Below are positions 7,811 to 27,839 of a DNA stretch of 64,000 bases, in pieces. The stretch is from a virus. The stretch spans positions 64,001 to 128,000 of IMG/VR virus record IMGVR_UViG_3300031746_000002; one strand, 5' to 3'. Under the pieces are notes generated by a model. That model searched no databases, was not told the DNA's origin, and saw only the letters and a program-made list of their open reading frames with translations. Numbering within the stretch: position 1 is the first letter of the stretch; every line of letters begins with the position of its first letter. The position numbers were made by a program, and so were the translations under genes.

Positions 7811-8161
7811 ATGAGTATATTAAAAATAGCTATTGGTTTGGAAGAAGACAACATAGAATTATTCAAAGAATTAAGAGCAATAGGAGTAGAACCAGAAGCA
7901 GGAGACACAGCAGTAAAATGGAATGCTAATGACCCTGATGAAGTTATAAAAGCAAAAGCTGCATTTAATGTTGCATTAAAACAATACGGAAAAGATGCTA
8001 TCATTTATTCTATAGGTAAGGATGGGAAGAAAGATAAAGAGCTTAAAGAGTTTGACCCATTAGCAGAGGAAATTTTAGTATTACCAAAACCACATCCGGG
8101 ACCAGACCCAGGTTCTGAATTTTCTTATGGCAGCGAATTTGATATGAAGGAGTTAGGATAA
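7811..8161 (+). CDS. Conserved small phage protein (GDT..W...D.DEV...FDP.AE.I pattern)
   Basis: AGGAG RBS; motif pattern recalled from phage hypothetical proteins, not verified. Confidence 0.5.
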   Translation: MSILKIAIGLEEDNIELFKELRAIGVEPEAGDTAVKWNANDPDEVIKAKAAFNVALKQYGKDAIIYSIGKDGKKDKELKEFDPLAEEILVLPKPHPGPDPGSEFSYGSEFDMKELG

Positions 8162-8163
8162 TT

Positions 8164-9663
8164 ATGCCAACACTACCTTTAGTATATACAGAACCTATGT
8201 GTTCAGACCCAATGACACAACTTATAAATTCATGCTTAGCAAGCATAGTATGTACAAGAGAAGAAGCTGCAATATTAAGAAAATTTAATGTATTACATAA
8301 TTTAAATCCATATTCACTTCAAGAGGAAATAAGTATAAGAGGTACTTTTCAAATTCCATTAGAAGTAACAAAAAGAAATGATATGAGTTGGGTTCCTTCT
8401 GGAGTACTTGATAGTGAAGCAGCTAAAAAATTATTAGAAGTAAGATTTAAGAATTGTAGGTTTATGTCTAATGTAGATGTGGCACATGAAGAACTTGTTT
8501 ATTCAAGAGATTCGCAAAAAGCAATTATAAGACGTTTATTAGATAGACAACTTCATGAGATTAAAACATTACATAGAAAAGAAATGAAGAAAGAAATGGA
8601 ACGAAGTAAACAATGCTTAGCTCCATTATCAATATTACCTACTCATGTAAAGGAGAATGATGCTATGGTTCTGCTTACAATGCAAGACATACGTCAAAGA
8701 TTTAATAAAATGGAAGCTGAACGATATGATATTGAAATGGGTTTTGGTGATACTCTTCTTGCTTATTCAGGGGCTACTAATATGGCAACAACTAATTATA
8801 AAAATTATGAAACTGCAGGTACTGTTACAAATGCTCAATACGGATACTTTGAAGAAACATTGCAACAGTATTACCCCCAAATTCAAATTAACCACATGAT
8901 GCCCGAAGGTACAATAATAATAGATGAACAAAGATTTGCTGAATATCCATTACATACTACGTATAGTACAACTACTGATACTAATAGTTATGAAGATTAT
9001 GCTTCAAGAATGCGGTATTATGAAATGATGGGAATTCCAAGTCCGTTTATGGCAAGTCCATACAATCCACAATTATTTGAAAATATTTCATCAGAAGCAT
9101 ATGAGTTACGAGAAAAACAACAGAAAGAAAGGCAATTCAAACTTCAATCAGCTGATGAAAAAGCACAGAAACTTTTGAAAGATATGATTAGTGAAATTGA
9201 TTTCAGACGATATAAAGAAAAAGGATATCTATTAGTTAAAGGTGAAAGTGGTAGAATTTATCGTATCTGGAATAATAATACAATGTTAGATGTTTATGAA
9301 CTAGAAGCGCATCAAAAAGATTATTCACAAAATGATAAAGACAGTCAAATGAGAATAATTAAACCTAATGAATTAGCTATACATTTATTGAAAGATGATA
9401 AGCTCACACTTCGTAGAAAACTTTGTATACATAGTCCAAGTAAAAATCTTCCGCAAACAGACGAAGTCATATTGAAATTTATCTTAGCTAAAAACGATGA
9501 AAAACGATTACTTGAAATGTCACATCATTTTATACAAAGTGAACAACCAACAGCACCTTCAGAACCATTTGGTTTTGGTCCATCACCAATTGATCCATCA
9601 AGAATAATGGATCCGAGATTATTTACTCCACAACCACATGAAAGGCTAGGGTTAATGAGATGA
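8164..9663 (+). CDS. Multi-domain hypothetical protein; N-terminal part with a degenerate HK97-capsid-like pattern, C-terminal conserved phage domain
   Basis: 499 aa; IP...SWVPSG...MSNVDVAHEEL segment; C-terminal KAQKLL...KGYLLVKGESGRIYRI...LCIH...DEKRLL. Confidence 0.5.
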   Translation: MPTLPLVYTEPMCSDPMTQLINSCLASIVCTREEAAILRKFNVLHNLNPYSLQEEISIRGTFQIPLEVTKRNDMSWVPSGVLDSEAAKKLLEVRFKNCRFMSNVDVAHEELVYSRDSQKAIIRRLLDRQLHEIKTLHRKEMKKEMERSKQCLAPLSILPTHVKENDAMVLLTMQDIRQRFNKMEAERYDIEMGFGDTLLAYSGATNMATTNYKNYETAGTVTNAQYGYFEETLQQYYPQIQINHMMPEGTIIIDEQRFAEYPLHTTYSTTTDTNSYEDYASRMRYYEMMGIPSPFMASPYNPQLFENISSEAYELREKQQKERQFKLQSADEKAQKLLKDMISEIDFRRYKEKGYLLVKGESGRIYRIWNNNTMLDVYELEAHQKDYSQNDKDSQMRIIKPNELAIHLLKDDKLTLRRKLCIHSPSKNLPQTDEVILKFILAKNDEKRLLEMSHHFIQSEQPTAPSEPFGFGPSPIDPSRIMDPRLFTPQPHERLGLMR

Positions 9664-13736: not shown

Positions 13737-13942
13737 AAACTAAAGAATATACAGTACCTATAGTAGCAGGTCTTCTTCAAACAGCAGCAAATCAAATTGA
13801 AGATGCATTATTAAACGATAACCGAATAACCGAGGATAATAGAGAACTACTGAAAAAATTATATCGTAGTACACAAACATCAAGTTGTTTAGCTAATCAG
13901 TTATCTCAAAACCTCAAAACACAAAAGGAGAAAATAAAATGA
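13733..13942 (+). CDS. Hypothetical protein
   Basis: GGAGG RBS, ATGA coupling on both sides. Confidence 0.55.
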   Translation: MKTKEYTVPIVAGLLQTAANQIEDALLNDNRITEDNRELLKKLYRSTQTSSCLANQLSQNLKTQKEKIK

Positions 13943-16569
13943 AATGGTTATCTAGAATAACAGCAGTTGCAACTGAAGTTGAAGAGGTAACAAAAGAAGT
14001 ATATAGACGTACGTTTGAAGATATGGCAAAGCGCTACATTGAACTCAATAAAAAAATGGAAGAGTCAGAAGCATTAATAGAACAAGCAATAGAAGAGATC
14101 AATGCAAGACTTGAAATAGCAAAGCTTACTGAAGTTACTGAAAAAGAAGAAAATATACTTAAAGCAATGCTCTATAAATTAGAGGAGCATAAAAAATCTA
14201 TAGATGGTTGGGAATTAAAATTAGCTCAAGCAAAAAAGAAATCACTCAAATCAAAAGACTTCATAGAAGAAATAACCGAAACATTTACTGAAATTAATCC
14301 TGCCTATAAGCAAATGATAGAATTCATTGCTTCAAAACATACAGAATATCCAGAACTAGATGATATTGATACTTATAAAATAACTCTTAAAAAAGAAAAG
14401 AAAGCCGGACTTAAGATAAATGCTGCTTTTGTAGAAAAATTTAAAGCAGCATTGGGTAAGTTCATAAACTGGTTAAAAGATAAATGGGACAGCATAATTG
14501 GAAAGATAGATAAAAAATATGCTGACATTGAAGATGCTATGAAAGAATTAGAAAATGCCCCGATGTTGGTAGTTAAAGAAGCTTCAATAGAAAAAGAAGC
14601 AAAATCAATAACAATTGAAGAATATAAAGCTGGAATAGTTGATGCTGTTGAAAGAGCATTTCCAGGAAAAACTTTTAGTATTGGTGTTTCTAGTATTTTA
14701 ACAGATCAGAATTTTCATACTCCTTTAGAGGCATTAGTTGAAGCTGGAATATGTGCAAAGCCAACAAGCAAATATGATTTTATGGCTATCATTGATGCAG
14801 ACAAAAAAGAAGCAGATGATTTAACGACAGTAATAGCTGATCATGATAATAAAATAGGTTATATAGGAATGGGTGGGGATAAAGTTGTTTTAGAAGAAAC
14901 AGCTTCATTAAAAAAAGAAGCAAGAGATTGGAAATATAAAGTTTACATTCCTGTTAATGCAGATAAATATGAAGACCCAACTGATGAAGGTGCATTAGAA
15001 CTTGCAAAAATAGCAGTCAATGAAATTACAAGAATACTTTCTACTGTTCCTGCTGAAAAAGATGATCTTAAAGATCAGTTAGAAAGTGTTAAGATGGAAT
15101 TTGAAGATGTTGTAGCAGTCGAAGATTTCGATGCAGCTTTAGAAACATTATATGATATGGGAGATAGTGAATCTATTTGGATAGAGACATATGAAAAGAA
15201 AGGTTCATTAAGTAAAGAAGCAGAAGAAAAAACTTTTGAAATTCCAACAGGCAATGCTCAGCTAGTATATAGTATAGATGGCATAGTAGGTGAAGAGTTT
15301 GAAGTTGATAGAGGAGGCACAATGCTTCCTATTGGAAAATATAAAGTTGTTACAAAACCAAAAGTTGATGTAGAACATTCTGGACCCTGGGGAACTTATT
15401 CAACTATCCTTGTTGAAAGAATTGCAGGGAATAGAGTTACATTGAAAAAGAAAGCAGGAGCAGTATGTAAAGAATGCGGCAAAGATATGATGGACCCAAC
15501 AGCAAAATCATGTACTTATCCTAAAATTAAGATTGATGGGGAAATCTATAATAGAGACACAGAATATTTTGATGTAAATGAAAGATGTCATGATTGTAAC
15601 ATAGTAAATAAAAAAGGAAACATACATCATTTTGGCTGCGATATTGAAAGATGTCCAAAATGTAACGGTCAAATTATAAGCTGTGAATGCAAAAAAGAAT
15701 TTCTTATTGGTCCAGATGGACAGGAAAGCAAAGCATCAATGAAAAAAGAAGCAACATCATATACTGATTTCTTAACAAACCGCGGAACTGAAATTAAACA
15801 GGCTATTAAGCAGTTAAATGAAATTCATAAAATATATGATAGTCTTTCTGAAGAAATTCTTGATAAAGCTCATGACAAAGTAGCAGGAATATATGATAAA
15901 AATGTTCCAGATTATATAGAAGATTGGGTTGCTGATGGAGATGCAGACGTTGATAGTATTGCTAGTTTAGCACTTAGTAATCAGGACAATTATGGAACAG
16001 AAAAACAAATGATATTATATGCTATAGAAGATTTTTATAACGTGATTATGAGAGGTAGAAAAGAATCTTCATTGAGAAAGAAAGCAGATAGTTATAATCC
16101 TTATATGTATACCTCTCCAACTGGTCCAGCTACTTCAGATGCTAAAACTAATCATAAGAAATATATGGTTAAATTTAAAGAAGCTGATGGGTCATGGAAA
16201 TTCTCTACAATGGAAGATGATCTTGAAGCAGCTAAGTCACAGGCACAAGAAATATATAATAATGAAAAGAAGAAATCAAAGGTAATTGATACTACTACAA
16301 GCAATGTTATCTTTGTTATAGGTGCTGAAAATAGTGAAACACTTAAACGTTATGCAAGTTTAGATGCTGATATTGATGCAATGGAAAAAAATGAACATAA
16401 AAAACATGTTGAAGGATTTAAAAAAGCAGCATCTTTACAAGCTAACATAGAAAAAGAAGTATATCAATGTGATAATTGTCATATCAGGCTTGGTAGATTT
16501 ATAAAGCAGCTTCCAGACAGTTGCCCACGCTGTGGAAAGCAAGTAAAATTTGACAATGTAATAAGGTAG
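13939..16569 (+). CDS. Putative head polyprotein 1 (MKWL leader; small domains separated by SLxKxA linkers)
   Basis: MKWLSRITA start; linkers AGLKINA, ASIEKEA, ASLKKEA, GSLSKEA, VTLKKKA, ASMKKEA, SSLRKKA; includes Cys-rich zinc-binding modules. Confidence 0.7.
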   Translation: MKWLSRITAVATEVEEVTKEVYRRTFEDMAKRYIELNKKMEESEALIEQAIEEINARLEIAKLTEVTEKEENILKAMLYKLEEHKKSIDGWELKLAQAKKKSLKSKDFIEEITETFTEINPAYKQMIEFIASKHTEYPELDDIDTYKITLKKEKKAGLKINAAFVEKFKAALGKFINWLKDKWDSIIGKIDKKYADIEDAMKELENAPMLVVKEASIEKEAKSITIEEYKAGIVDAVERAFPGKTFSIGVSSILTDQNFHTPLEALVEAGICAKPTSKYDFMAIIDADKKEADDLTTVIADHDNKIGYIGMGGDKVVLEETASLKKEARDWKYKVYIPVNADKYEDPTDEGALELAKIAVNEITRILSTVPAEKDDLKDQLESVKMEFEDVVAVEDFDAALETLYDMGDSESIWIETYEKKGSLSKEAEEKTFEIPTGNAQLVYSIDGIVGEEFEVDRGGTMLPIGKYKVVTKPKVDVEHSGPWGTYSTILVERIAGNRVTLKKKAGAVCKECGKDMMDPTAKSCTYPKIKIDGEIYNRDTEYFDVNERCHDCNIVNKKGNIHHFGCDIERCPKCNGQIISCECKKEFLIGPDGQESKASMKKEATSYTDFLTNRGTEIKQAIKQLNEIHKIYDSLSEEILDKAHDKVAGIYDKNVPDYIEDWVADGDADVDSIASLALSNQDNYGTEKQMILYAIEDFYNVIMRGRKESSLRKKADSYNPYMYTSPTGPATSDAKTNHKKYMVKFKEADGSWKFSTMEDDLEAAKSQAQEIYNNEKKKSKVIDTTTSNVIFVIGAENSETLKRYASLDADIDAMEKNEHKKHVEGFKKAASLQANIEKEVYQCDNCHIRLGRFIKQLPDSCPRCGKQVKFDNVIR

Positions 16570-16572
16570 GCT

Positions 16573-19491
16573 ATGCCACGCAAAGCAAATATTAGAGGTG
16601 TTGATTTTATAAAACCAAAGAAAACAAAAGAAAAATCACTCTTCGATTCTTTTGATAGATCAGTAGAAGCAAAGAGCAGCAACTTAGGAATATATTGGGA
16701 AGAAAATCCTGTTGGAATTAGAGAATTTGTAACAAGCTTTGACCATATGGGAATACCCAATGGTTTGAGTGATGAACAGTACGAACCATTAGAATTTTTA
16801 TTTGGAAATGAACCAAAGAAAATTTTTGATAATGGTAACACAACAGGAATTGAAGAGTGGGGCAAAGGATGTATAAGCGGTGATGCTAAAATTAGGGATG
16901 TAGAAACAGGAACAGAATATACTATTGAACAACTATATAAATTAAAAAAAGAAATAACAGTACAATGTATTGATGAAGAAAATAAAATTAGAATATCGCA
17001 AGCATCAGTTCCTTGGATTAAAGGAATAGATGATTTATATGAAGTAAAAACAAAATTGGGAAAATCAATTAAAGTAACTAAAGAACATAGATTTAAAACA
17101 CAAAATGGCTGGAAACAATTAAAAGATCTTAGAGTTGACAGCGTTATATTAGATGACAATGATAAAGTAGAATGTAAGTTATGTGGAGAATATGTAAAAT
17201 CGATTCCAAACCACTTACAATGGAATCATCCAGATATAAAGTTAAATGATTATAAATTATTATTTCCTAAAGCAAAGGTATTATCAGATACATGGAAAAA
17301 ATCATGTGGCAGAGCTGGAAAGAAACATTGGGCATTTGGAAAAAAACATCTTAATTCTGGTATAGGATTTGTTAAATATAATAAATCGAGAACTGGTAAA
17401 ACATTTAATGAATATTTTGGTAAAGAAAAAAGTAAGCAAATAAAAGAAAAAATAAAAAATACAGTAAATAAAAATAATAGTCTTTTAACATTAGCTGAGT
17501 CTAAAAAAAAATATGGACGATCTGGTAAAAAACATCATAATTGGAAAGGCGGCATTAGTTATACTTATAAAATCGGTGATACTTATTTAGGAACATTTGG
17601 AAAAAAGCTTCATGAATATATTAGGAAAAGAGATAAAAATCATTGTAAGTTTTGTAAGAAACCAGTTAAAAATAAATTCAAAGGTGATATACATCATATA
17701 AATTATAACAAACTAGATGGTAGATTAGAAAATTTAATATTACTTTGTAAAAGCTGTCATTGTAAAACGCAATATGGTTTACGAAAAGTATGGATCGAAA
17801 AATGTTTAAATAAGATAATTAAACCCAAATGGGACACTATAACATCTATTACATTTTGGAAACATGATAAATATTATGATTTGGAAGTTGAAAAATATCA
17901 TAATTATTTAGCAAATGGTTTATATAACCATAATTCAGGGAAAGATTTAATAGCAGCAATTGGCTTATGTTATATCACACATGTTTTGCTTTGTTGTTCA
18001 GACCCACAGAAGTTGTTAGGAATAGGCGATATATCTGGGGAACCAATTGACTTTGTAAATGTAGCAACAAATGCAGACCAAGCATCAACAGTATTCTTTA
18101 CAAAGTTTACTGAAAGAGTAAAGCGTTGGAAATGGTTAAAGGATAAATATAATTTTAAAGTATCAGGACGAAGTTTAAATGCATTGACTACTAATAAGAA
18201 TAAGGAAATAAATTTATTCAATGATGATGTAGTAATAACATCAAACGGTATTTTATTTCCAAAGATGATAAGAGCATTCAGTGGTAACTCAGAGCAAGAA
18301 GCCCAGGAAGGTAAGAACTATTTAGTATTCATATTAGATGAAGCCAGCGGCTTTGCAGAGACAAAGACATTAAGTGCAGAGAAGATATATAAATCATTAA
18401 AGAGTTCAGCAAGAACAAGGTTTGGTGATAAGTGGAAATGCTTCATACTTTCATTTCCAAGATATAAAGATGATTTCATAGAAGTAATGCACAAAAAAGC
18501 AAAGAAACATTTGCATTGGCACACAGCAAAATTAGCAACATGGCAAGTAAAACCACCACATTGTTTCAGCGGCAAATGGTTTGAATATGAAGGACATAGA
18601 ATTCCATTAGAATACAAAGAAGATTTTGATGATGATCCAAGAGATGCAAAAGCAAAGTTCTTATGTATTCCGCCAGATGCAATTAATCCATTTATAGAAG
18701 AACAGGAAAAGATAGAGCTTTGTATAAATAAACAACGAAAGCAAATGTTCACATGTTATGATTCTCAGAAAGATAATTACGTACAGAAGAAACTAACGTT
18801 AGCACCTTGGATTAGAGTATTGCCAGCACATACTTATACATTGACTATAGACTTAGGAGTTAGTCAATGTAGTTGCGCATTATCATTGCATCATAAAGAA
18901 ATAAAAGGAAATATAGATATAATAGTACAAGACCTTGTAACAAGATGGGAGCCTATACCAAAGAAAGGATTGAGAGTAGATTTCTTTAATGTAGGTTCAA
19001 CCATTTCAATGCTTGTAAAAACATTGGGAGTAAAACAAGTAAGAGTATTCTTTGACCAATGGCAGAGTGAATTACTAATAAACATTTTAAAGAAGATAGG
19101 TATCAATGCTTTAATATATTATTTGGGTTATGAAAACTATCAAGACTTAAGAGAAAGAATTTATACAGGCAGAATAGACCTGCTTGATTATGCACCACAA
19201 ACAAAAGAGTTAAAAGAGATTTCATTAATTAAAGGTAATAAAGTAGACAGACCAGAAAATGGAACAAAGGATATTTGCGATACAGTAGCTGGTGCAATTT
19301 ATGTTCTAACAAAATATGATGAAGAGCATAGAGATAATAGGAAAGATAAAAGAGCACTGCTAGCAAAATTAAATGACGGTGAATTTATTGGATCTAATAT
19401 TTCTGAAATTGATGGTGAAGGAAATTATATTAAGCAAGAAGAAAATGCATTTGAAGGCGCAATCAGCGTATGGGATATTGCTGGTAAATAA
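16573..19491 (+). CDS. terL: Terminase large subunit, intein-containing
   Basis: Walker A GKG|SGKD split by intein; Walker B FILDEAS; nuclease LTIDLG, FFDQWQS, KVDRP...KDICD; upstream of portal. Confidence 0.92.
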   Translation: MPRKANIRGVDFIKPKKTKEKSLFDSFDRSVEAKSSNLGIYWEENPVGIREFVTSFDHMGIPNGLSDEQYEPLEFLFGNEPKKIFDNGNTTGIEEWGKGCISGDAKIRDVETGTEYTIEQLYKLKKEITVQCIDEENKIRISQASVPWIKGIDDLYEVKTKLGKSIKVTKEHRFKTQNGWKQLKDLRVDSVILDDNDKVECKLCGEYVKSIPNHLQWNHPDIKLNDYKLLFPKAKVLSDTWKKSCGRAGKKHWAFGKKHLNSGIGFVKYNKSRTGKTFNEYFGKEKSKQIKEKIKNTVNKNNSLLTLAESKKKYGRSGKKHHNWKGGISYTYKIGDTYLGTFGKKLHEYIRKRDKNHCKFCKKPVKNKFKGDIHHINYNKLDGRLENLILLCKSCHCKTQYGLRKVWIEKCLNKIIKPKWDTITSITFWKHDKYYDLEVEKYHNYLANGLYNHNSGKDLIAAIGLCYITHVLLCCSDPQKLLGIGDISGEPIDFVNVATNADQASTVFFTKFTERVKRWKWLKDKYNFKVSGRSLNALTTNKNKEINLFNDDVVITSNGILFPKMIRAFSGNSEQEAQEGKNYLVFILDEASGFAETKTLSAEKIYKSLKSSARTRFGDKWKCFILSFPRYKDDFIEVMHKKAKKHLHWHTAKLATWQVKPPHCFSGKWFEYEGHRIPLEYKEDFDDDPRDAKAKFLCIPPDAINPFIEEQEKIELCINKQRKQMFTCYDSQKDNYVQKKLTLAPWIRVLPAHTYTLTIDLGVSQCSCALSLHHKEIKGNIDIIVQDLVTRWEPIPKKGLRVDFFNVGSTISMLVKTLGVKQVRVFFDQWQSELLINILKKIGINALIYYLGYENYQDLRERIYTGRIDLLDYAPQTKELKEISLIKGNKVDRPENGTKDICDTVAGAIYVLTKYDEEHRDNRKDKRALLAKLNDGEFIGSNISEIDGEGNYIKQEENAFEGAISVWDIAGK
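16870..17934 (+). mobile_element. Intein (355 aa) carrying a C2H2 zinc finger and an HNH homing endonuclease
   Basis: N-terminal C(ISGD), block B VTKEHRF, C-terminal YDLEVEKYHNYLANGLYNHN followed by Ser; CKFC...DIHHINYNK..NLILLCKSCH. Confidence 0.93.
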
Positions 19492-19502: not shown

Positions 19503-21161
19503 ATGTTAACAAAGCAAGCAATAATAAATGACCTTAAAAAGATTTTGGCTTATTCAACCCAGAAACTTAGTGCTATGTCATTAGATGATATAGAAGAAGA
19601 ATTTGGAAATTTGTATGATACTATAAAATGGTCAAAAAAGAATGTAACTGCTGAACAGCTGAAAACAATAATACTTGATATAAACAAAAGATTCAATGTT
19701 GAAGATATAGAACAAAAACTAGAAGATATATTTGATAAAATTGATAGTGTTATTAGCAGAGCTGCTTCATTAGAAAAGAAAGCAGCTATTGATAACTTGA
19801 TGGAATTGATGGATCGAGACTTTGAAATCACTGATGCAGACATGGTTGAATTAAAAGAAGATGAAATTGAATTCGTATTAAAGCACCCAGCAAAATTTGA
19901 TATGAAAGCAAATGAAATTAAAAGTCTAGAAGATAAGTTAAAGCGGCTTAGGGCATCATTGAAAAAAGAAGCAATACTCAGTGTTGGTACTGAAGTAGAA
20001 ACTCTTGATGGTTCTGGAGTAATAACTAAAGTTAAAGATATGGGATTGAACGATTCTTATTATACTGTAAAATTAGAAAATGGGGAAGAGCATGATTATT
20101 ATCCTGATGCTAAAGAAGTATGGCTTAAAGCTACATTAGAAAAAGAAGCAGGATTAGGAAAGCATATTGCAGAAACATTAGAAGCAGCTGGAATTAATGT
20201 AGCTTTTGAAATGAGTGAGGATGGAATTATAGTTGAAGATGAAAAGGATGCAAAGAAAGTAATGAAAGTTCTTGATGACTCTGGTAGCTTTGGACCCACA
20301 GCATATAATAATGAAACTAAAGAAATTATGATAGGAGAGTATAAAGAAAAGAAATCTTTATTAAAAAAAGAAGCTTCAAAATATACACGTTGGGCATCAA
20401 CTGATAGCCAAGAAGAAGCCATTGAAACTATAGAAGAAACACTTAATCTATTAGGTATTAAACTTGGCGGAGGAACTGCTATAGGTAAATCACCACAAAC
20501 TGTGATTTTAGATATTAAATATCAAGACGGTGCAATAAGTGTTAATGCTGAAGGTGAAGTTAAATTATTCGGTGATGATGTTACTGGCATAATTAATGAA
20601 AAAGATGGCATAGCAGATAAATTAAAAGAAAATGGTATTGAAGTTAAAGAATCAACTGAAGCTAATCCAAACTATGAAATCAAAACAGGTTCTGCTAATG
20701 AGCTTAAAGAAATAGAAGCAAGCATCAGGAAGAACCACCCAAACATTACAGACCTTGAAGTAGGAAGGCAGATGAGGGATATTATAACAGTAGCAAAAGG
20801 GAAAGCTACAGATAAGAAAGTTATTGCAAGATTAACAACAGCAGAAATCAGTAACATGTTTCCAGAATTTGATAAGACAGGAGGGGTATGGCAAGTGGAA
20901 GAAAAAAATGGTAAGAAGACAATCATACGACCTGACATTAAAGCTATTGAAGAAGCAGTAGAAAACAAAGGGCATATCAGAAAGGTTAATGATATAGTCC
21001 TTTATGATGATGGAAGTCCAGATAGCAAAATGTTTGAAGTCCAGATAAAAGAAATCCTTGATGGCGGCAAATACAAGGTTATAGCAATGCAAACAGGTAA
21101 AGAATTCACAGCAGTGGAATCACAGCTCCTAGATGAGTCAAAAATTGAAGAGCTAATGTAA
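19503..21161 (+). CDS. Putative head polyprotein 2
   Basis: AAGGAGG RBS; MLTKQA start; linkers ASLEKKA, ASLKKEA, ATLEKEA, SLLKKEA; two SH3/Tudor-like modules. Confidence 0.7.
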   Translation: MLTKQAIINDLKKILAYSTQKLSAMSLDDIEEEFGNLYDTIKWSKKNVTAEQLKTIILDINKRFNVEDIEQKLEDIFDKIDSVISRAASLEKKAAIDNLMELMDRDFEITDADMVELKEDEIEFVLKHPAKFDMKANEIKSLEDKLKRLRASLKKEAILSVGTEVETLDGSGVITKVKDMGLNDSYYTVKLENGEEHDYYPDAKEVWLKATLEKEAGLGKHIAETLEAAGINVAFEMSEDGIIVEDEKDAKKVMKVLDDSGSFGPTAYNNETKEIMIGEYKEKKSLLKKEASKYTRWASTDSQEEAIETIEETLNLLGIKLGGGTAIGKSPQTVILDIKYQDGAISVNAEGEVKLFGDDVTGIINEKDGIADKLKENGIEVKESTEANPNYEIKTGSANELKEIEASIRKNHPNITDLEVGRQMRDIITVAKGKATDKKVIARLTTAEISNMFPEFDKTGGVWQVEEKNGKKTIIRPDIKAIEEAVENKGHIRKVNDIVLYDDGSPDSKMFEVQIKEILDGGKYKVIAMQTGKEFTAVESQLLDESKIEELM

Positions 21162-21337: not shown

Positions 21338-22558
21338 ATGGAATTCATTAAAAGCAACACAGACCTTGTTGATAACCAAAGATCTGAGGAAACAGAAAAT
21401 GGAGACCCAGTATTAAATGCACTTAAAAAGAAAGCAGGCAGCACAGGTGATTACAATGTAACAAGATGGTTGTCTGATAGAAGCTTTGCAGGAACAAACA
21501 CAAAGCAAGAAATCATTGAGCTCGACAGACAGCTTATAAAAATGATAAACGAAAAAATGTTCGGTTATAAATATATAGAAGAATATCTGTCAACAGTAGG
21601 CTACCAGAAAGCATTGATACGTGCAAGGTTTAAAGTTTTAACAGGTGCAGATTATGAGGACTTTATGCCTTATGCAAAGTTCTTAAAGACTCCTCCAACA
21701 ATTCCTGGAATTAACTACGGCTGGGGAGTAAGTAAAGATTCTAAGTACGAACATTATTTCATTCAGCCATATTATCTGGGATATTCTATCTGGGGGCAAA
21801 AGGGTTATCTTGATAGGAAAGAAGTCAATGCATTTCTTACACTGGAACTTGCACAGAAAGCAATGGAGAAACTAGTAAAAGAATTTATCTATTATGATGT
21901 AATTGTAGATGTACCAGCAACACAGAAACCAGTATTACTTACAGAGCCAGTTGGTACATATGAAAGAGGGCAGAGAAAACAAGAACAGCAAGACATTGCA
22001 ATGAAGAAAGCAATGTTAGAAATTCAAGCCGATAGTGATGCAGATGAAGAGCCTTCACCCGAAGAAACAGCGAAAAAGGAGGAAACGATGGAAGAGGCTG
22101 ATAAGAGGAAACAAATTCCATTTGACTCAATTCGAAAAGAACTTACTCCTCATGATATGTTTGAAAATGAGAAACAAGAAGTTTCTGGAGATATAGTTCC
22201 AAAGACAATAAAGAAAGTTGTTGATTACATAAAAGCAAAAGATGAAGCTATCACTGCTTATGTAGTTACAATAGATAGTTTCAAATATAAGCAAGAGGAA
22301 CTTGAGTCTATCATAAAGAATGTTACTCCTGCTATAGAAGAGGAAAAGGTTGAAGAGTATTTCACATCAAACGCAGTAATTACAGTAGTGATTAATATAC
22401 AGAATAAGAAAGCATCAACAGGCAACATGAAACAAGGCTACATGGTTTTCACAGTTTTTAATGGTGATGTAGTTAGTGATGATACATTCAAAGGTGAAGA
22501 CGATAAGATATATGGTCTTACTGAAGCTGGACTAGATCAGTACTTCAGTATAAGATAA
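21338..22558 (+). CDS. Virion/head-associated protein (hypothetical)
   Basis: GAGGAGG RBS; ALKKKA motif near N-terminus; directly upstream of portal. Confidence 0.55.
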   Translation: MEFIKSNTDLVDNQRSEETENGDPVLNALKKKAGSTGDYNVTRWLSDRSFAGTNTKQEIIELDRQLIKMINEKMFGYKYIEEYLSTVGYQKALIRARFKVLTGADYEDFMPYAKFLKTPPTIPGINYGWGVSKDSKYEHYFIQPYYLGYSIWGQKGYLDRKEVNAFLTLELAQKAMEKLVKEFIYYDVIVDVPATQKPVLLTEPVGTYERGQRKQEQQDIAMKKAMLEIQADSDADEEPSPEETAKKEETMEEADKRKQIPFDSIRKELTPHDMFENEKQEVSGDIVPKTIKKVVDYIKAKDEAITAYVVTIDSFKYKQEELESIIKNVTPAIEEEKVEEYFTSNAVITVVINIQNKKASTGNMKQGYMVFTVFNGDVVSDDTFKGEDDKIYGLTEAGLDQYFSIR

Positions 22559-22584: not shown

Positions 22585-24516
22585 ATGGCAAAGTTAGAAG
22601 ATTTTAGTGAAGCACAAAAAAAACGTGCTATAGAACGTTTGGAAAAATTAAATCCTTTAAGTCTTAAAAGGCCTTTACATAAGGGTGAAGAAAATATAGC
22701 TTCTAAAGTAGAGGAACAAATATTTAAAAGACAGGCAGCATTGAAAAGAGAAGCTGGAGACTCTTATTCATTTTCAATGGATTCTACAGCAGGTGTTTCA
22801 AGAGTACCCATTCTATTTGTAGACCCACTATTTGACCCAGTCTTGTTGTTATTTCCTACAGGCGATCTTGAACAATTAAATAAACGGTTACGACATTATT
22901 ATATGTATCATTATTTAGTAGGGAATTTAATAGACCTACACAGCGAATTTCCATTGTCTGATCATGTGCTTGAATGTGAAGATGATAGCATAAAGAAATA
23001 TTACAATGATTTCAAAGACAGAATAGGTGCATTAGATATAATGACACAACAGTTAAGAGGTTATCATTTATTGGGAGAAGCAGTACATTATGGGAACTGG
23101 GATAACAATAACTTTGAATGGGAAAGCTTCACACAGTTCCAGCCAGAAGATATAGAATTGATGGATACGTTTGTAAGTCAACCAGTATTCTTCTTGAAAG
23201 TAAAGAAAGACTCTGAAATAGGAAAGATAGTAAACAACACTTCAGATATGGTAGCAAGAGCAATCACTGAATTACTTCCAGATAAATTAGTATCAGCAGC
23301 AAGGACAGGAAGAAGGGTGCATCTCGATTCAAGCCGAGTTTTGTACTTTGCTAATAAGCCAGAAGGAAGTATGAAGCGTGGACATTCATTGCTTAAAAGA
23401 TGTTTGAAAGATCTAGTGCATGAAGATAGGTTAAGGTTACTTCAACAGAGTTTTATTGAAAGACATTCAAAGCCAATTAAGATATTTAAAGTGGGTTCAA
23501 AAGAACTTGGTTGGATCCCATCAGACAGGCATATGGTGAAACTGCAGAAGTTACTTGCGCAAGCAGCAAATGACCCTGATTTCAATTTAATATATCACCC
23601 ATTCTTAGAGGTTGATTATGTAGGGACAAAAGAAAAGATCACAAACCTCAGTGAAGAATTCGATGATGTACAGAAAAAGATTATGGTAGGATTATTTGCT
23701 AATGATGCATTAGTGCATGGGGAAGCCACTACTTACGCATCTAGTACTGTTCAGCTTAAAATCATAATGTATAGATACTTAGCACAGAGGGCGAAGCTGG
23801 AGAACCTTTGGAAGTATAGAGTGTATCTACCATTAGCAATGAAGAGGGGATTTGTAAGAAGGAGTAAAGCAGAGATAGATCACAATCTACGAATTAATAG
23901 TAAGCTTGATAAATATATAAAGGTTAAAGGACAGGATAGATTAATTGAAGCAGAATTTGTAACAGGTTCTCAAGGACAGAGACTTAATGGTGATGATGGT
24001 AAACCTTTATTAAGGATAGGGAATTCTGTTTATAGAGGCAGTGAATATGATAAATATATAATCCCAGAATATATTTGGCAGAAGAGGAACTTAGTAGACA
24101 GTTCATCTGAAAGGGACATGTTAAGACAACTTAGAGATAATAGTGAAATTCCATTTGAGATGATTGCAGATGCAATGGGTTGGGATATGAAGCATATTGA
24201 AGACATGCTTAAGAAAGAACAGTCAACAGTATTTGATCCAAAATACCGTGCAATAGTAGATGAAAAAACAAAAGATGATGATGCTTATAAAGAGCAGATA
24301 CTTTTAAAGAAGACTCCAGAAGAGGCATTGAAAGAATTAGAAAGACAAAAGCAGAAAGAGAAAGCACCAGTGGTTGAACAAGAAACAGCAGAACAACCTG
24401 AATTAAAAATTCCTGCTAAAGAAGAGACCCCAGAATTACCGCCAGAAGAGGGCGAAAAGAAAGAACCAAAGAAACCCCGAACACCAGTAGGTGGCGAGGA
24501 AACGATAAAGGAATAA
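22585..24516 (+). CDS. Portal protein
   Basis: Position after terL; LVGNLIDLHSEFP, LLGEAVHY, GHSLLKRCLKDL, GEATTYASS; acidic/proline tail; ALKREA motif near N-terminus. Confidence 0.85.
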   Translation: MAKLEDFSEAQKKRAIERLEKLNPLSLKRPLHKGEENIASKVEEQIFKRQAALKREAGDSYSFSMDSTAGVSRVPILFVDPLFDPVLLLFPTGDLEQLNKRLRHYYMYHYLVGNLIDLHSEFPLSDHVLECEDDSIKKYYNDFKDRIGALDIMTQQLRGYHLLGEAVHYGNWDNNNFEWESFTQFQPEDIELMDTFVSQPVFFLKVKKDSEIGKIVNNTSDMVARAITELLPDKLVSAARTGRRVHLDSSRVLYFANKPEGSMKRGHSLLKRCLKDLVHEDRLRLLQQSFIERHSKPIKIFKVGSKELGWIPSDRHMVKLQKLLAQAANDPDFNLIYHPFLEVDYVGTKEKITNLSEEFDDVQKKIMVGLFANDALVHGEATTYASSTVQLKIIMYRYLAQRAKLENLWKYRVYLPLAMKRGFVRRSKAEIDHNLRINSKLDKYIKVKGQDRLIEAEFVTGSQGQRLNGDDGKPLLRIGNSVYRGSEYDKYIIPEYIWQKRNLVDSSSERDMLRQLRDNSEIPFEMIADAMGWDMKHIEDMLKKEQSTVFDPKYRAIVDEKTKDDDAYKEQILLKKTPEEALKELERQKQKEKAPVVEQETAEQPELKIPAKEETPELPPEEGEKKEPKKPRTPVGGEETIKE

Positions 24517-24634: not shown

Positions 24635-24880
24635 ATGAGGACTGCTATGAAATTAATAATCAAGAGCCATGAGGGTGAATTTGAAGTTGATACATCAGAC
24701 ACAATAACAATTGGAGAATTAGTAGAAGTAGCAAGAAAACATTTCAAGCTTCAAAAACGCGGACATTATGTGTTAGGTAAGTTCAATCACGTATCCGTTG
24801 AATTTATGGCTTCATCAAGATTATCAGAGTTATGTTTAAAAGATAATGATGTGTTAATCTTTGAAAACTATACAAGTTAA
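24635..24880 (+). CDS. Ubiquitin-like beta-grasp protein (EsaB/YukD-like), no C-terminal GG
   Basis: MKLIIKS...EVDTSDTITIGELVE...RLSELCLKDNDVLIF parallels the ubiquitin pattern (TI..L/V, TLSDYNI..ESTL). Confidence 0.65.
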   Translation: MRTAMKLIIKSHEGEFEVDTSDTITIGELVEVARKHFKLQKRGHYVLGKFNHVSVEFMASSRLSELCLKDNDVLIFENYTS

Positions 24881-24921: not shown

Positions 24922-25167
24922 ATGAGTCAGGTTGAAGAAAGAGTAAAAGACTTGATTGATGAATTGTCAGGAATAAGTGGAAATGAAATAGTTTCTACTG
25001 ATCGTATTGAAGAAGATTTATGCATTGATGAATTAGATAAAGTAGAATTGATGATGTCTATTGAAGATGAATTTGTGCTAGATGGAATATCAGATGAAGA
25101 TACTGAGAAAATAAAAACAGTGCAAGACTTAGTGGATTATGTAGAGAAGAATAAACAAGATGAATAA
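24922..25167 (+). CDS. Acyl carrier protein homolog lacking the phosphopantetheine serine (DSL changed to DEL)
   Basis: VEERVKDLI...EDLCIDELDKVELMMSIEDEF...ISDEDTEKIKTVQDLVDYV. Confidence 0.88.
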   Translation: MSQVEERVKDLIDELSGISGNEIVSTDRIEEDLCIDELDKVELMMSIEDEFVLDGISDEDTEKIKTVQDLVDYVEKNKQDE

Positions 25168-26733: not shown

Positions 26734-26790
26734 ATGTTTACCCGATACAAAAATATAAATAAAAAAACTAGGGTAAAAAAGGAGAACAAA

Positions 26791-27102
26791 ATGGAAACAG
26801 ATGCAGAAATTATTAAAGGGTTAGAAATGAAGAACAAGAAGTTAGTAGAGCGAAATGATGAACTACAAAAAGAAAAGCAAGATTTACAAGCAACAGTAGA
26901 TGAGTTATATGTACCATTAGCATTTGAGTATAAAGAAGGAAGAAAAACATTGCTAATAAAACTTGGATCAAAAGAACGTGGTTGGTTTCCAAGCGGTAGA
27001 CATTTTGCAGCAGCACAGAAACAATTCAAAGCTTGTATGTTGGATAAGAAATTCAATATCATATTATATCACTATGCTATTGAAACACAAATAGTAGAAT
27101 AA
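26791..27102 (+). CDS. Coiled coil fused to a copy of the portal KxGSKExGWxPSxRH segment (mini-portal paralog)
   Basis: GGAG RBS before ATG 26791; 17 identities in 35 ungapped positions against portal codons around 23488-23592. Confidence 0.8.
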   Translation: METDAEIIKGLEMKNKKLVERNDELQKEKQDLQATVDELYVPLAFEYKEGRKTLLIKLGSKERGWFPSGRHFAAAQKQFKACMLDKKFNIILYHYAIETQIVE

Positions 27103-27194: not shown

Positions 27195-27839
27195 ATGCCA
27201 AAAGGACAAATTGCTTGGAATAAAGGATTAACAAAAGAAACAGATGAGCGAGTTGCATTAATAGGAAAAAGCTCGGGTAGGACAAGAATAGGAATGGTAG
27301 GATCGTTTAAAGGAAAACATCATTCTAAACAATCACGTAAAAAAATTAGTAAGAAAATGATGGGTATGGTACATTCTAAAGAACGTCGTTTAAATGAAAG
27401 TAAAGGATATAATCATTCTGAGCAGCATCGTCTTAAAATAAGTATAGCAGCAGCTAAACAAGCTATACAAAATAAACAAGATCATAAATGGAGTTGGGGT
27501 AAATCGGGTTGGTTTTATTCTAAAAAGAATAATAAAAGATTTAGATATTTATCTAGTATTGAATTACAATGTTTAAAATTTTTAGAAAGTAAAGAAGATG
27601 TTTTAAAATATCAAACTAATCCATTAAGAATACTTTATACATATCAAATGCAACAAAGAAATTATATACCCGATATTTTGGTTGAATATAATAATGGTAA
27701 AAAAATATTAATAGAAGTAAAGCATAATAAAGGTTTGAAGAATAATATAGTTCAAATTAAAGCAAAAGCAGCTATAAAATATTGTAAAGAAAATAATATG
27801 GAATATAAATTTTATACAGAGTCTAAATTGCTGATGTAG
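27195..27839 (+). CDS. Free-standing homing endonuclease (WNKGLTKETD, NUMOD3-like, TnsA-N-like domain)
   Basis: AWNKGLTKETD, FKGKHHS..SRKKIS, SSIEL, YIPDILV, LIEVK, KAKAA..YC; paralog of 11088. Confidence 0.8.
   Translation: MPKGQIAWNKGLTKETDERVALIGKSSGRTRIGMVGSFKGKHHSKQSRKKISKKMMGMVHSKERRLNESKGYNHSEQHRLKISIAAAKQAIQNKQDHKWSWGKSGWFYSKKNNKRFRYLSSIELQCLKFLESKEDVLKYQTNPLRILYTYQMQQRNYIPDILVEYNNGKKILIEVKHNKGLKNNIVQIKAKAAIKYCKENNMEYKFYTESKLLM

Follow-up and report, generated by a model that had tools for sequence, protein, structure and literature searches.

A small phage protein homologous to the predicted clip segment of the portal and preceded by a leucine-zipper helix

The clip is the only part of the phage portal ring that is exposed outside the capsid; the large terminase docks there during packaging and the neck afterwards. 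It is the hub of the packaging machine, and it is also a surface that is read by bacterial immunity. Here we describe a gene (P0001, positions 26,791 to 27,102) for a 103-residue protein, hereinafter the mini-protein, which is homologous to the clip-like segment of the portal encoded nearby and stands alone behind a long helix. The gene lies in the window, i.e., the whole analyzed stretch of 64,000 nucleotides, which consists of bases 64001-128000 of the 138.9-kb IMG/VR virus record IMGVR_UViG_3300031746_000002 (CheckV completeness estimate 68%). The window has a G+C content of 32%, and near-identical DNA is carried by sediment metagenomes of six studies.

Among the described clips, that of phage T4 gp20 (residues 279-358) consists of three strands and one helix linking the two stem helices, and is the attachment site of gp17 and gp13, with clip-tip residues contacting gp17 (PMC4493910). 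The same source reports that a 24-residue T4 clip peptide (288-311) binds gp17 and inhibits packaging. The clip of YonE, the SPbeta portal (residues about 270-325), likewise has three strands and one helix between stem helices (PMC12847820); in both sources, the clip is exposed outside the capsid and is the docking place of the terminase and the neck. No paper on natural free-standing clip proteins was found in the full-text literature (open-access papers and bioRxiv). The genes and segments compared here are the following:

26791..27102, plus strand: the mini-protein gene P0001, 103 amino acids plus stop, defined by the open reading frame (ORF) and its translation, with a ratio of nonsynonymous to synonymous substitution rates (dN/dS) of 0.20
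22585..24516, plus strand: the portal gene P0002, 643 amino acids, representing the paralogous source family, recognized through phrog_16240, gp14 of phage G and Foldseek
23443..23625, plus strand: portal residues 287-347, the end of the first stem helix and the predicted clip, homologous to the mini-protein according to alignments and the secondary structure of the model

A search of the PHROGs started with the portal ORF identifies phrog_16240, "portal protein", with an E-value of 2.5e-41, and the nearest named relative is gp14 of Bacillus phage G, "portal protein" (26% identity, E-value 4e-50). A Foldseek search with its AlphaFold2 (AF2) model, which has a predicted local distance difference test score (pLDDT) of 71.5, retrieves T4 gp20 and many other solved portals with E-values of 5e-9 and weaker. 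BLASTP aligns mini-protein residues 44-102 with portal residues 289-346 (22 of 59 identical, one gap, E-value 2e-10), and in a tblastn search of the mini-protein over the whole 138.9-kb record the portal is the only second match (E-value 2.1e-8). The Smith-Waterman score of the pair is 99, compared with a mean of 35.7 (standard deviation 5.3, maximum 67) in shuffles, 0 of 2000 of which reach it, and the corresponding Gumbel p is 1.4e-7. When the 267 window frames of at least 60 amino acids are scored against the mini-protein, the next best after the portal reaches 44. At the level of families, hhalign comparison of the profiles of 52 small proteins and 44 portals yields a probability of 98.7% (E-value 2e-16, 64 columns), and a hidden Markov model (HMM) of the domain built from the small proteins matches every one of the 64 clade portals at the clip, with independent E-values from 2e-17 to 9e-5.

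An earlier note on this DNA had described the small ORF as a duplicate of the central segment of the portal, on the strength of two 35-residue strings with 17 identical positions. Both strings are present, and the count of 17/35 without gaps holds when repeated by eye. The note had named BLASTP against the portal as a check and failure after shuffling as an outcome that would speak against it; the BLASTP and hhalign E-values and the shuffles bear out that the small ORF and the portal segment are truly homologous. As to the duplication itself, the relationship to the portal stands, whereas a recent copy of the phage's own portal does not, given the old separate lineage described below.

The elements of the portal model in and around the homologous segment are a helix (269-295), a strand (298-303), a helix (314-327), two strands (335-338 and 341-346), a helix (356-369) and a 38-residue helix (384-421), so that the segment forms a strand-helix-strand-strand unit between two long helices. 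This topology matches the published descriptions of the T4 gp20 and YonE clips, so that the assignment of the segment to the clip, which the earlier note had drawn from its position, is supported by the model. The mini-protein itself divides into two parts:

26800..26919, plus strand: a long helix with leucine-zipper heptads, residues 4-43 (AF2 block with pLDDT 94-98; heptad pattern)
26914..27096, plus strand: the clip-like domain, residues 42-102, with a strand (52-58), a G-x4-GW-x-P loop, a helix (69-81), a strand (88-94) and a tail (95-102), delineated by hhalign, the model, the domain HMM and column conservation

In the AF2 model (pLDDT 94.9, 52-row alignment), helix 4-43 is followed by two strands (52-58 and 88-94) with helix 69-81 and a short helix (84-87) between them, and the tail is modeled with less confidence. 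At an alignment offset of 245, strand 52-58, helix 69-81 and strand 88-94 correspond to portal elements 298-303, 314-327 and 335-338, respectively. A complete ring-forming portal was considered and rejected: the protein has 103 amino acids, its model comprises one helix and the clip unit, and because the wing, crown and second stem helix are absent, along with the tunnel loop, it is not a portal. Small terminase (TerS) was rejected as well, with no TerS match in Pfam or PHROGs and an architecture other than the N-terminal DNA-binding helix-turn-helix and oligomerization core of TerS. Searches of PDB sequences with the family profile return coiled-coil noise only (best E-value 0.052), those with the portal-family profile return SPbeta YonE alone (E-value 0.0065, outside the clip), and a search of the ESM Atlas with mini-protein residues 42-103 returns unnamed clusters only. 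The top weak neighbors of the mini-protein model in BFVD are R4TM87 and R4T8M0, small uncharacterized proteins of Haloarcula tailed viruses; one of these haloarchaeal neighbors has an E-value of 0.054, and the other aligns over 58 columns at 28% identity (E-value 0.45). Both might be distant free-standing clip proteins encoded by archaeal viruses.

The N-terminal helix has the features of a leucine zipper. The d positions of its heptads are leucines 11, 18, 25, 32 and 39, five where a leucine zipper calls for Leu at d over four or more heptads, and the a positions are I8, N15, N22, K29 and V36. In GCN4-type zippers, Leu at d together with Asn at a goes with parallel dimers. The N-terminal coiled coil proposed previously is thus borne out as far as sequence can show, by the five leucines and the single helix 4-43 of the model. 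In the reading proposed below, the mini-protein is probably dimeric. Two-copy complex prediction with the family alignment gave scores of 0.33, 0.37 and 0.49, on both sides of the mark of 0.42, with controls at 0.00. In Pfam, the helix has weak sub-threshold matches only, to the zipper families DivIC, ZapB and HALZ. A heptad heuristic applied across the family is not discriminating (10 of 41 N-terminal parts pass the strict threshold versus 31 of 820 shuffles); P0001, with its polar a positions, does not pass, and the heuristic was therefore not used. The zipper was also considered as a counterpart of the first stem helix of the portal, and this was rejected: the profile alignment reaches back no further than mini-protein residue 42, after P42, and conservation across the family does not extend to the N-terminal parts, so that the zipper is an addition.

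The gene is real and is under purifying selection. Its start is marked by the following feature:

26779..26784, plus strand: ribosome-binding site AAGGAG, 6 nt before the ATG, read from the sequence; GGAG kept in the orthologue contig L003

A longer in-frame version of the ORF opens at 26734. In L003, an in-frame TAG shuts this extension, whereas the GGAG box and the ATG are both retained, so that the 103-residue form is the gene. The orthologue encoded in L003 shares 73% protein identity and 79% nucleotide identity with the mini-protein, and the dN/dS between the two is 0.20 for the whole gene (helix part, 0.22; clip part, 0.17). The sole indel between them is 7 residues, exactly one heptad, missing from the L003 copy. 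Contigs of two other runs differ from the window in 11 codons of the gene, 8 of them synonymously; the three replacements (M13E, V19I and E24A) fall at heptad positions f, e and c, and neither of the two changes in the clip part alters an amino acid. These variant contigs are single and of low depth, and the counts serve as supporting evidence only. A non-functional leftover of a portal gene duplicated in part, or an ORF that arose by chance, would fit the small size of the frame, and no RNA run is listed among the six found to carry this DNA. Given the dN/dS of 0.20, the mostly synonymous variants, the conserved start and ribosome-binding site, the heptad-exact indel, the 52 further family members and the confident model, this explanation is extremely improbable; the neutrally evolving remnant that the earlier note had named as a refuting outcome is not what is observed.

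A phmmer search of 1.84 billion representatives started with the mini-protein yields 53 matches with E-values of 1e-3 or better, 18 of them at 1e-10 or better. All of these matches except one are proteins of 60-208 amino acids carrying the domain (52 of 53); the other, P0054, is a 1543-residue coiled-coil match. The family used for the counts and the tree comprises P0001 and the 52 small proteins (at least 53 members), and a word-indexed search added twelve more. The family motif, outside any portal, is K-L-G-[DS]-x3-G-W-[IV]-P-x3-H-F ... D-K-x-[YF]-N-[IV]-[LI]. In 43 of the 53 members, the protein ends no more than 11 residues after the domain, where a portal would enter its second stem helix; nine carry the domain close to the N-terminus or extend further beyond it, and P0051 consists of two domains in tandem. 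The N-terminal parts vary and are mutually unrelated across the family. Pfam has no family matching P0001 at an E-value of 0.01 or better and none common to more than one of the 52 members; one of 52 matches a single unrelated family of the PHROGs, none of which covers the domain; NCBIfam gives sub-threshold coiled-coil matches only; and 0 of 5 members are matched in PADLOC. This is, then, an undescribed family built from a known domain.

In a maximum-likelihood tree of 53 mini-protein domains and 60 portal clips, one branch separates the two sets (Shimodaira-Hasegawa-like approximate likelihood-ratio test support, SH-aLRT, 98), and the mini-protein/portal label changes once, versus 37.7 times in shuffles. 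The tree is based on 61 columns and a quick search, and its inner forks are poorly resolved. It left out the portals P0085, P0091 and P0102 (intein-interrupted), L027 (cut by the contig end), P0054 (coiled-coil match only), L021 and L025 (frame lengths as in L020 and L024), and L013-L016 and L032 (places already represented). Because one branch separates the family from the 60 portal clips, the family derives from a single old capture or duplication of the clip from the portal lineage of this phage group and not from repeated recent copying. Within the tree, P0001 does not track the clip of its own phage's portal.

Some portals in this set are unusually long: five of the 50 portal homologues (P0073, P0082, P0085, P0091 and P0102) have 982-1045 amino acids. 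Intein or LAGLIDADG Pfam domains (PF14528, PF14890) are present in P0073, P0082, P0091 and P0102. For P0085 and P0091, the match to the clip breaks off at HMM position 44 of 61, as would be expected of an insert within the clip that separates its helix from the second strand.

Comparison of the two sets shows both a shared core and features specific to the mini-proteins. The near-invariant positions common to mini-proteins and portals are G59/G304, G64-W65-x-P67/G309-W310-x-P312, H71-F72, D85, N89 and H94 (conservation in mini-proteins and portals, respectively: G59/G304, 100% and 100%; G64/G309, 91% and 95%; W, 94% and 92%; P, 96% and 100%; H, 74% and 77%), and the shared conservation peaks in the first loop of the clip. 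Specific to the mini-proteins are L54, K80, K86/K87 and a one-residue insertion in the second strand. A hydrophobic residue (L/M, 92%) occupies the position where portals keep K299 (95%), and lysines are found at positions 77, 80, 86 and 87 (K77 58%, K80 77%, K86 58%) where portals have Gln, Ala, Pro or Asp. The net charge of the clip part averages +2.0 in the mini-proteins versus +0.6 in the portals (Mann-Whitney p 6e-5), and in this phage it is +6 versus +1. A part of this extra basicity may be an adaptation to the lack of stem helices.

The basic charge and the family-conserved lysines absent from portals are also compatible with a domain that was derived from the clip and co-opted for another ligand, such as a nucleic acid or a host protein, with no relation to packaging, as are the age and monophyly of the family and the neighborhood of regulators and nucleases (RHH_3, HTH_3, a TnsA-like/NUMOD3 endonuclease and DNA ligase). 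Such a re-use of the fold seems unlikely, given that the mini-proteins have so far been found only together with portals of the same clade (three of three records), that the best-conserved part of their sequence is common to them and the portal, and that they have no similarity to any DNA-binding family.

The distribution of the family among genome records is sparse. A tblastn search of P0001 and P0010 against 50,697 deposited phage records, including phage G, detects no mini-protein, and scans of GTDB genomes give no match. In IMG/VR, mini-proteins are found in only two further records, G001 and G005; the other confirmed IMG/VR matches (L005-L007, L014-L031) sit in portal-length frames of 410-1452 amino acids. 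A search of JGI metagenomes identifies one orthologue, that of L003. The three genome records with a mini-protein (3/3) also hold a portal of this clade, the two genes being 26 kb apart in G001 (183 kb). In G005 (66 kb), two divergent paralogues are located 0.6 kb from each other and about 31 kb from the portal. In the window, the mini-protein gene follows the portal stop after 2.3 kb, on the same strand and with nine small, tightly packed ORFs in between; no terminator-like site was found on the plus strand between the two genes, and a promoter scan is at background (41 found versus 38.2 expected). Small non-structural genes surround the mini-protein gene in all three records. The gene, which the earlier note had placed outside the structural operon and which may lie there, looks accessory and, judged from the three records, seems not to be tied to the packaging operon.

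The two G005 (L033) paralogues, at 7881-8174 and 8696-9085, are of the P0107 type with G-W-I-G and the P0108 type with K-W-M-P. The same two types are represented by P0055 and P0105, for each of which the longest contig listed measures 29,224 bases; this suggests that they form a conserved pair and, possibly, a heterodimer. In L003, a gene for a DUF5662 protein (508-999; PF18907, E-value 6e-39) adjoins the mini-protein gene, and in G001 an ORF that looks similar by eye (L004 4484-5035) lies 1 kb from it. No DUF5662-like ORF adjoins the mini-protein gene in the window.

Taken together, these observations are best compatible, with a probability that we put at roughly 0.4, with the tentative view that the mini-protein is a soluble pair of clips that most likely occupies the large terminase and acts as a regulator or competitor of motor docking. 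In this mechanism, the zipper would pair two clip domains, the soluble pair would present the conserved tip loop G-x4-G-W-I/F-P-x3-H-F to ligands of the portal clip, and the mini-protein would occupy such a ligand in competition with the portal. The target could be the terminase of a co-infecting relative or, at a time when proheads are not yet ready, that of the phage itself. The roles suggested in the earlier note, namely an oligomerized portal-epitope decoy, a packaging regulator or an inhibitor of competitor phages, are plausible. The existence of the tandem-domain protein P0051 and of adjacent paralogue pairs suggests that two clips are the working unit. The proposed order of ligands places the terminase first, ahead of immune sensors or portal subunits, because the free clip peptide of T4 attaches to gp17 and stops packaging and because the most conserved shared stretch is the first clip loop, where, by position only, the T4 gp17 contacts lie.

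Several observations weigh against the terminase-directed role. The Gly, Trp, Pro, His and Asn residues common to the mini-protein and the portal may owe their conservation to folding only, and the GW-x-P loop corresponds to the gp17-contacting tip of T4 by position only. Because the clip part is more basic, the surface of the mini-protein does not faithfully reproduce that of the portal clip. A competitor of the phage's own motor docking needs a regulatory logic. A Foldseek search of the PDB with the mini-protein model finds no significant portal (best E-value 0.48, caspases and ribosomal proteins); against BFVD, the best E-value is 0.054, and a few "portal protein" fragments at 0.48-1.7 are not significant; and in the VIA-align wide search, Z is at most 5.7 and every row aligns the long helix 1-42 only. 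The correspondence of the folds accordingly rests on profile alignment and secondary structure, not on three-dimensional superposition. Finally, no mini-protein is found in three more records with a portal of this clade (84, 83 and 53% complete), so that its function is dispensable or accessory.

This accessory character is also what could be expected of an anti-defense decoy, in which the soluble clip dimer would bind clip-recognizing immune sensors of the SpbK or Avs4 type, a pair without 12-fold symmetry titrating them with neither clustering nor activation. Avs4 senses portal proteins. The presence of the gene in three of the six examined records of the portal clade, the small non-structural neighbors in all three and the variable N-terminal parts across the family are compatible with such a role. 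For SpbK, two sources (PMC12847820, PMC11984713) describe the YonE clip as the docking platform of the SpbK N-terminal domain, and activation as requiring clustering on the dodecamer, with escape by the clip-helix mutant A291P. The RAZR defense also senses portals, but is not clip-based; the word "clip" occurs 0 times in PMC13017515. The mini-proteins, moreover, form a separate, ancient lineage that does not follow the cognate portal clip and differs from it at conserved surface positions, which is not expected of a faithful epitope decoy; a binder of an oligomerizing sensor could equally activate it; and no match to PADLOC or to a known anti-defense family was detected. The decoy hypothesis is therefore doubtful. 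A broader proposal, which we regard as slightly more doubtful still, is that free-standing clip proteins are a general, unrecognized class of phage accessory mimics of the portal docking site, the zipper-held pair being a non-activating decoy for sensors that cluster on twelve clips, following an SpbK-like logic.

The tail of the domain bears on another possible ligand, the portal subunit. Mini-protein residues 95-102 (AIETQIV) align with the third clip strand of the portal (341-346), are unpaired in the monomer model, where they form a coil with lower pLDDT, and the strand residues are among those common to both families. A free clip might enter the three-stranded sheet that forms between subunits and holds the portal ring together, pair there with the subunits' clip strands and so modulate portal assembly, either by capping monomers, as a chaperone or timing device, or by poisoning the rings of related competing phages. 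Inhibition of the phage's own portal assembly would be costly, though, and the pairing surfaces have diverged, because the hydrophobic L/M (92%) replaces portal K299 (95%) and the second strand has an extra residue; this role appears quite unlikely. Moonlighting on RelA/SpoT in the manner of T7 gp8 was also considered as a function of a free clip and was rejected, deletion of the clip having enhanced binding in that system according to PMC13483052.

A natural, folded and selected soluble copy of the clip would provide a probe for the terminase-portal interface, which has long been unresolved, and would suggest a new layer of packaging control or sabotage. The mini-protein is also a testable candidate for a new type of anti-defense, the epitope decoy, which, if true, would be the first phage case of an unavoidable structural trigger being shielded by a soluble copy of the sensed epitope.

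The surroundings of the gene in the window include several other elements. A gene for an RHH_3 protein is located immediately upstream of the mini-protein gene, a tRNA-Pro gene begins two bases past its stop, and genes for a TnsA-like/NUMOD3 endonuclease, an HTH_3 protein and an NAD-dependent DNA ligase are found downstream. The endonuclease gene (27195-27839, after the tRNA-Pro gene; PF08722, E-value 1.8e-14) begins with a stretch of 60-70 bases to which very many unrelated metagenome contigs align (contigs at 27200-27270, summed depth up to 174), and this 5' stretch has dozens of loose contig ends on either side; it resembles a short mobile-endonuclease motif that is widely shared. Directly after the portal gene are two 81-residue ORFs, at 24635-24880 and 24922-25167; the first has a weak ubiquitin-like match below the cut-off (PF11543, UN_NPL4, E-value 7.9e-4), and the second has no Pfam match at an E-value of 0.001 or better. 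The large terminase (TerL) ORF, 16573-19491, encodes 972 amino acids and matches phrog_17415 at residues 414-525 (E-value 8.6e-23). An HNH-endonuclease-like stretch at about residues 289-431 (phrog_8446, E-value 8.8e-10) suggests, from sequence similarity, that this ORF may hold an inserted homing element or an intein-like insert. The ORFs interleaved with the TerL and portal genes, 13939-16569, 19503-21161 and 21338-22558 (876, 552 and 406 amino acids, respectively), have no match in PHROGs.

Among the known systems, the closest in outcome to the decoy hypothesis is Nip of phage phi3T, an accessory protein that defuses the portal-clip-triggered SpbK defense, as the mini-protein would if it were a decoy; Nip does not mimic a portal, however, but binds SpbK at its NADase (TIR) domain. 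Bacillus phage G gp14 and the clade of metagenomic portals around it carry the clip motif common to the mini-proteins, but in phage G, unlike the present record, no mini-protein is found by tblastn. With the clips of tailed-phage portals (T4 gp20 279-358; YonE), the mini-protein shares the strand-loop-helix-strand (strand) unit; it has no significant sequence or fold match to T4 gp20 and YonE themselves, and its homology, according to hhalign and the domain HMM, is to the clip of the portals of its own clade. What sets it apart from all portal clips is that it stands alone, with a zipper in front and with its own substitutions and one-residue insertion. The synthetic T4 gp20 peptide 288-311, a free clip-tip piece that competes for the terminase (PMC4493910), embodies the mechanism proposed for the mini-protein. 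That peptide is a laboratory product from an unrelated portal lineage, whereas the mini-protein, a putative terminase binder, is a natural, selected gene product that is folded in the model.

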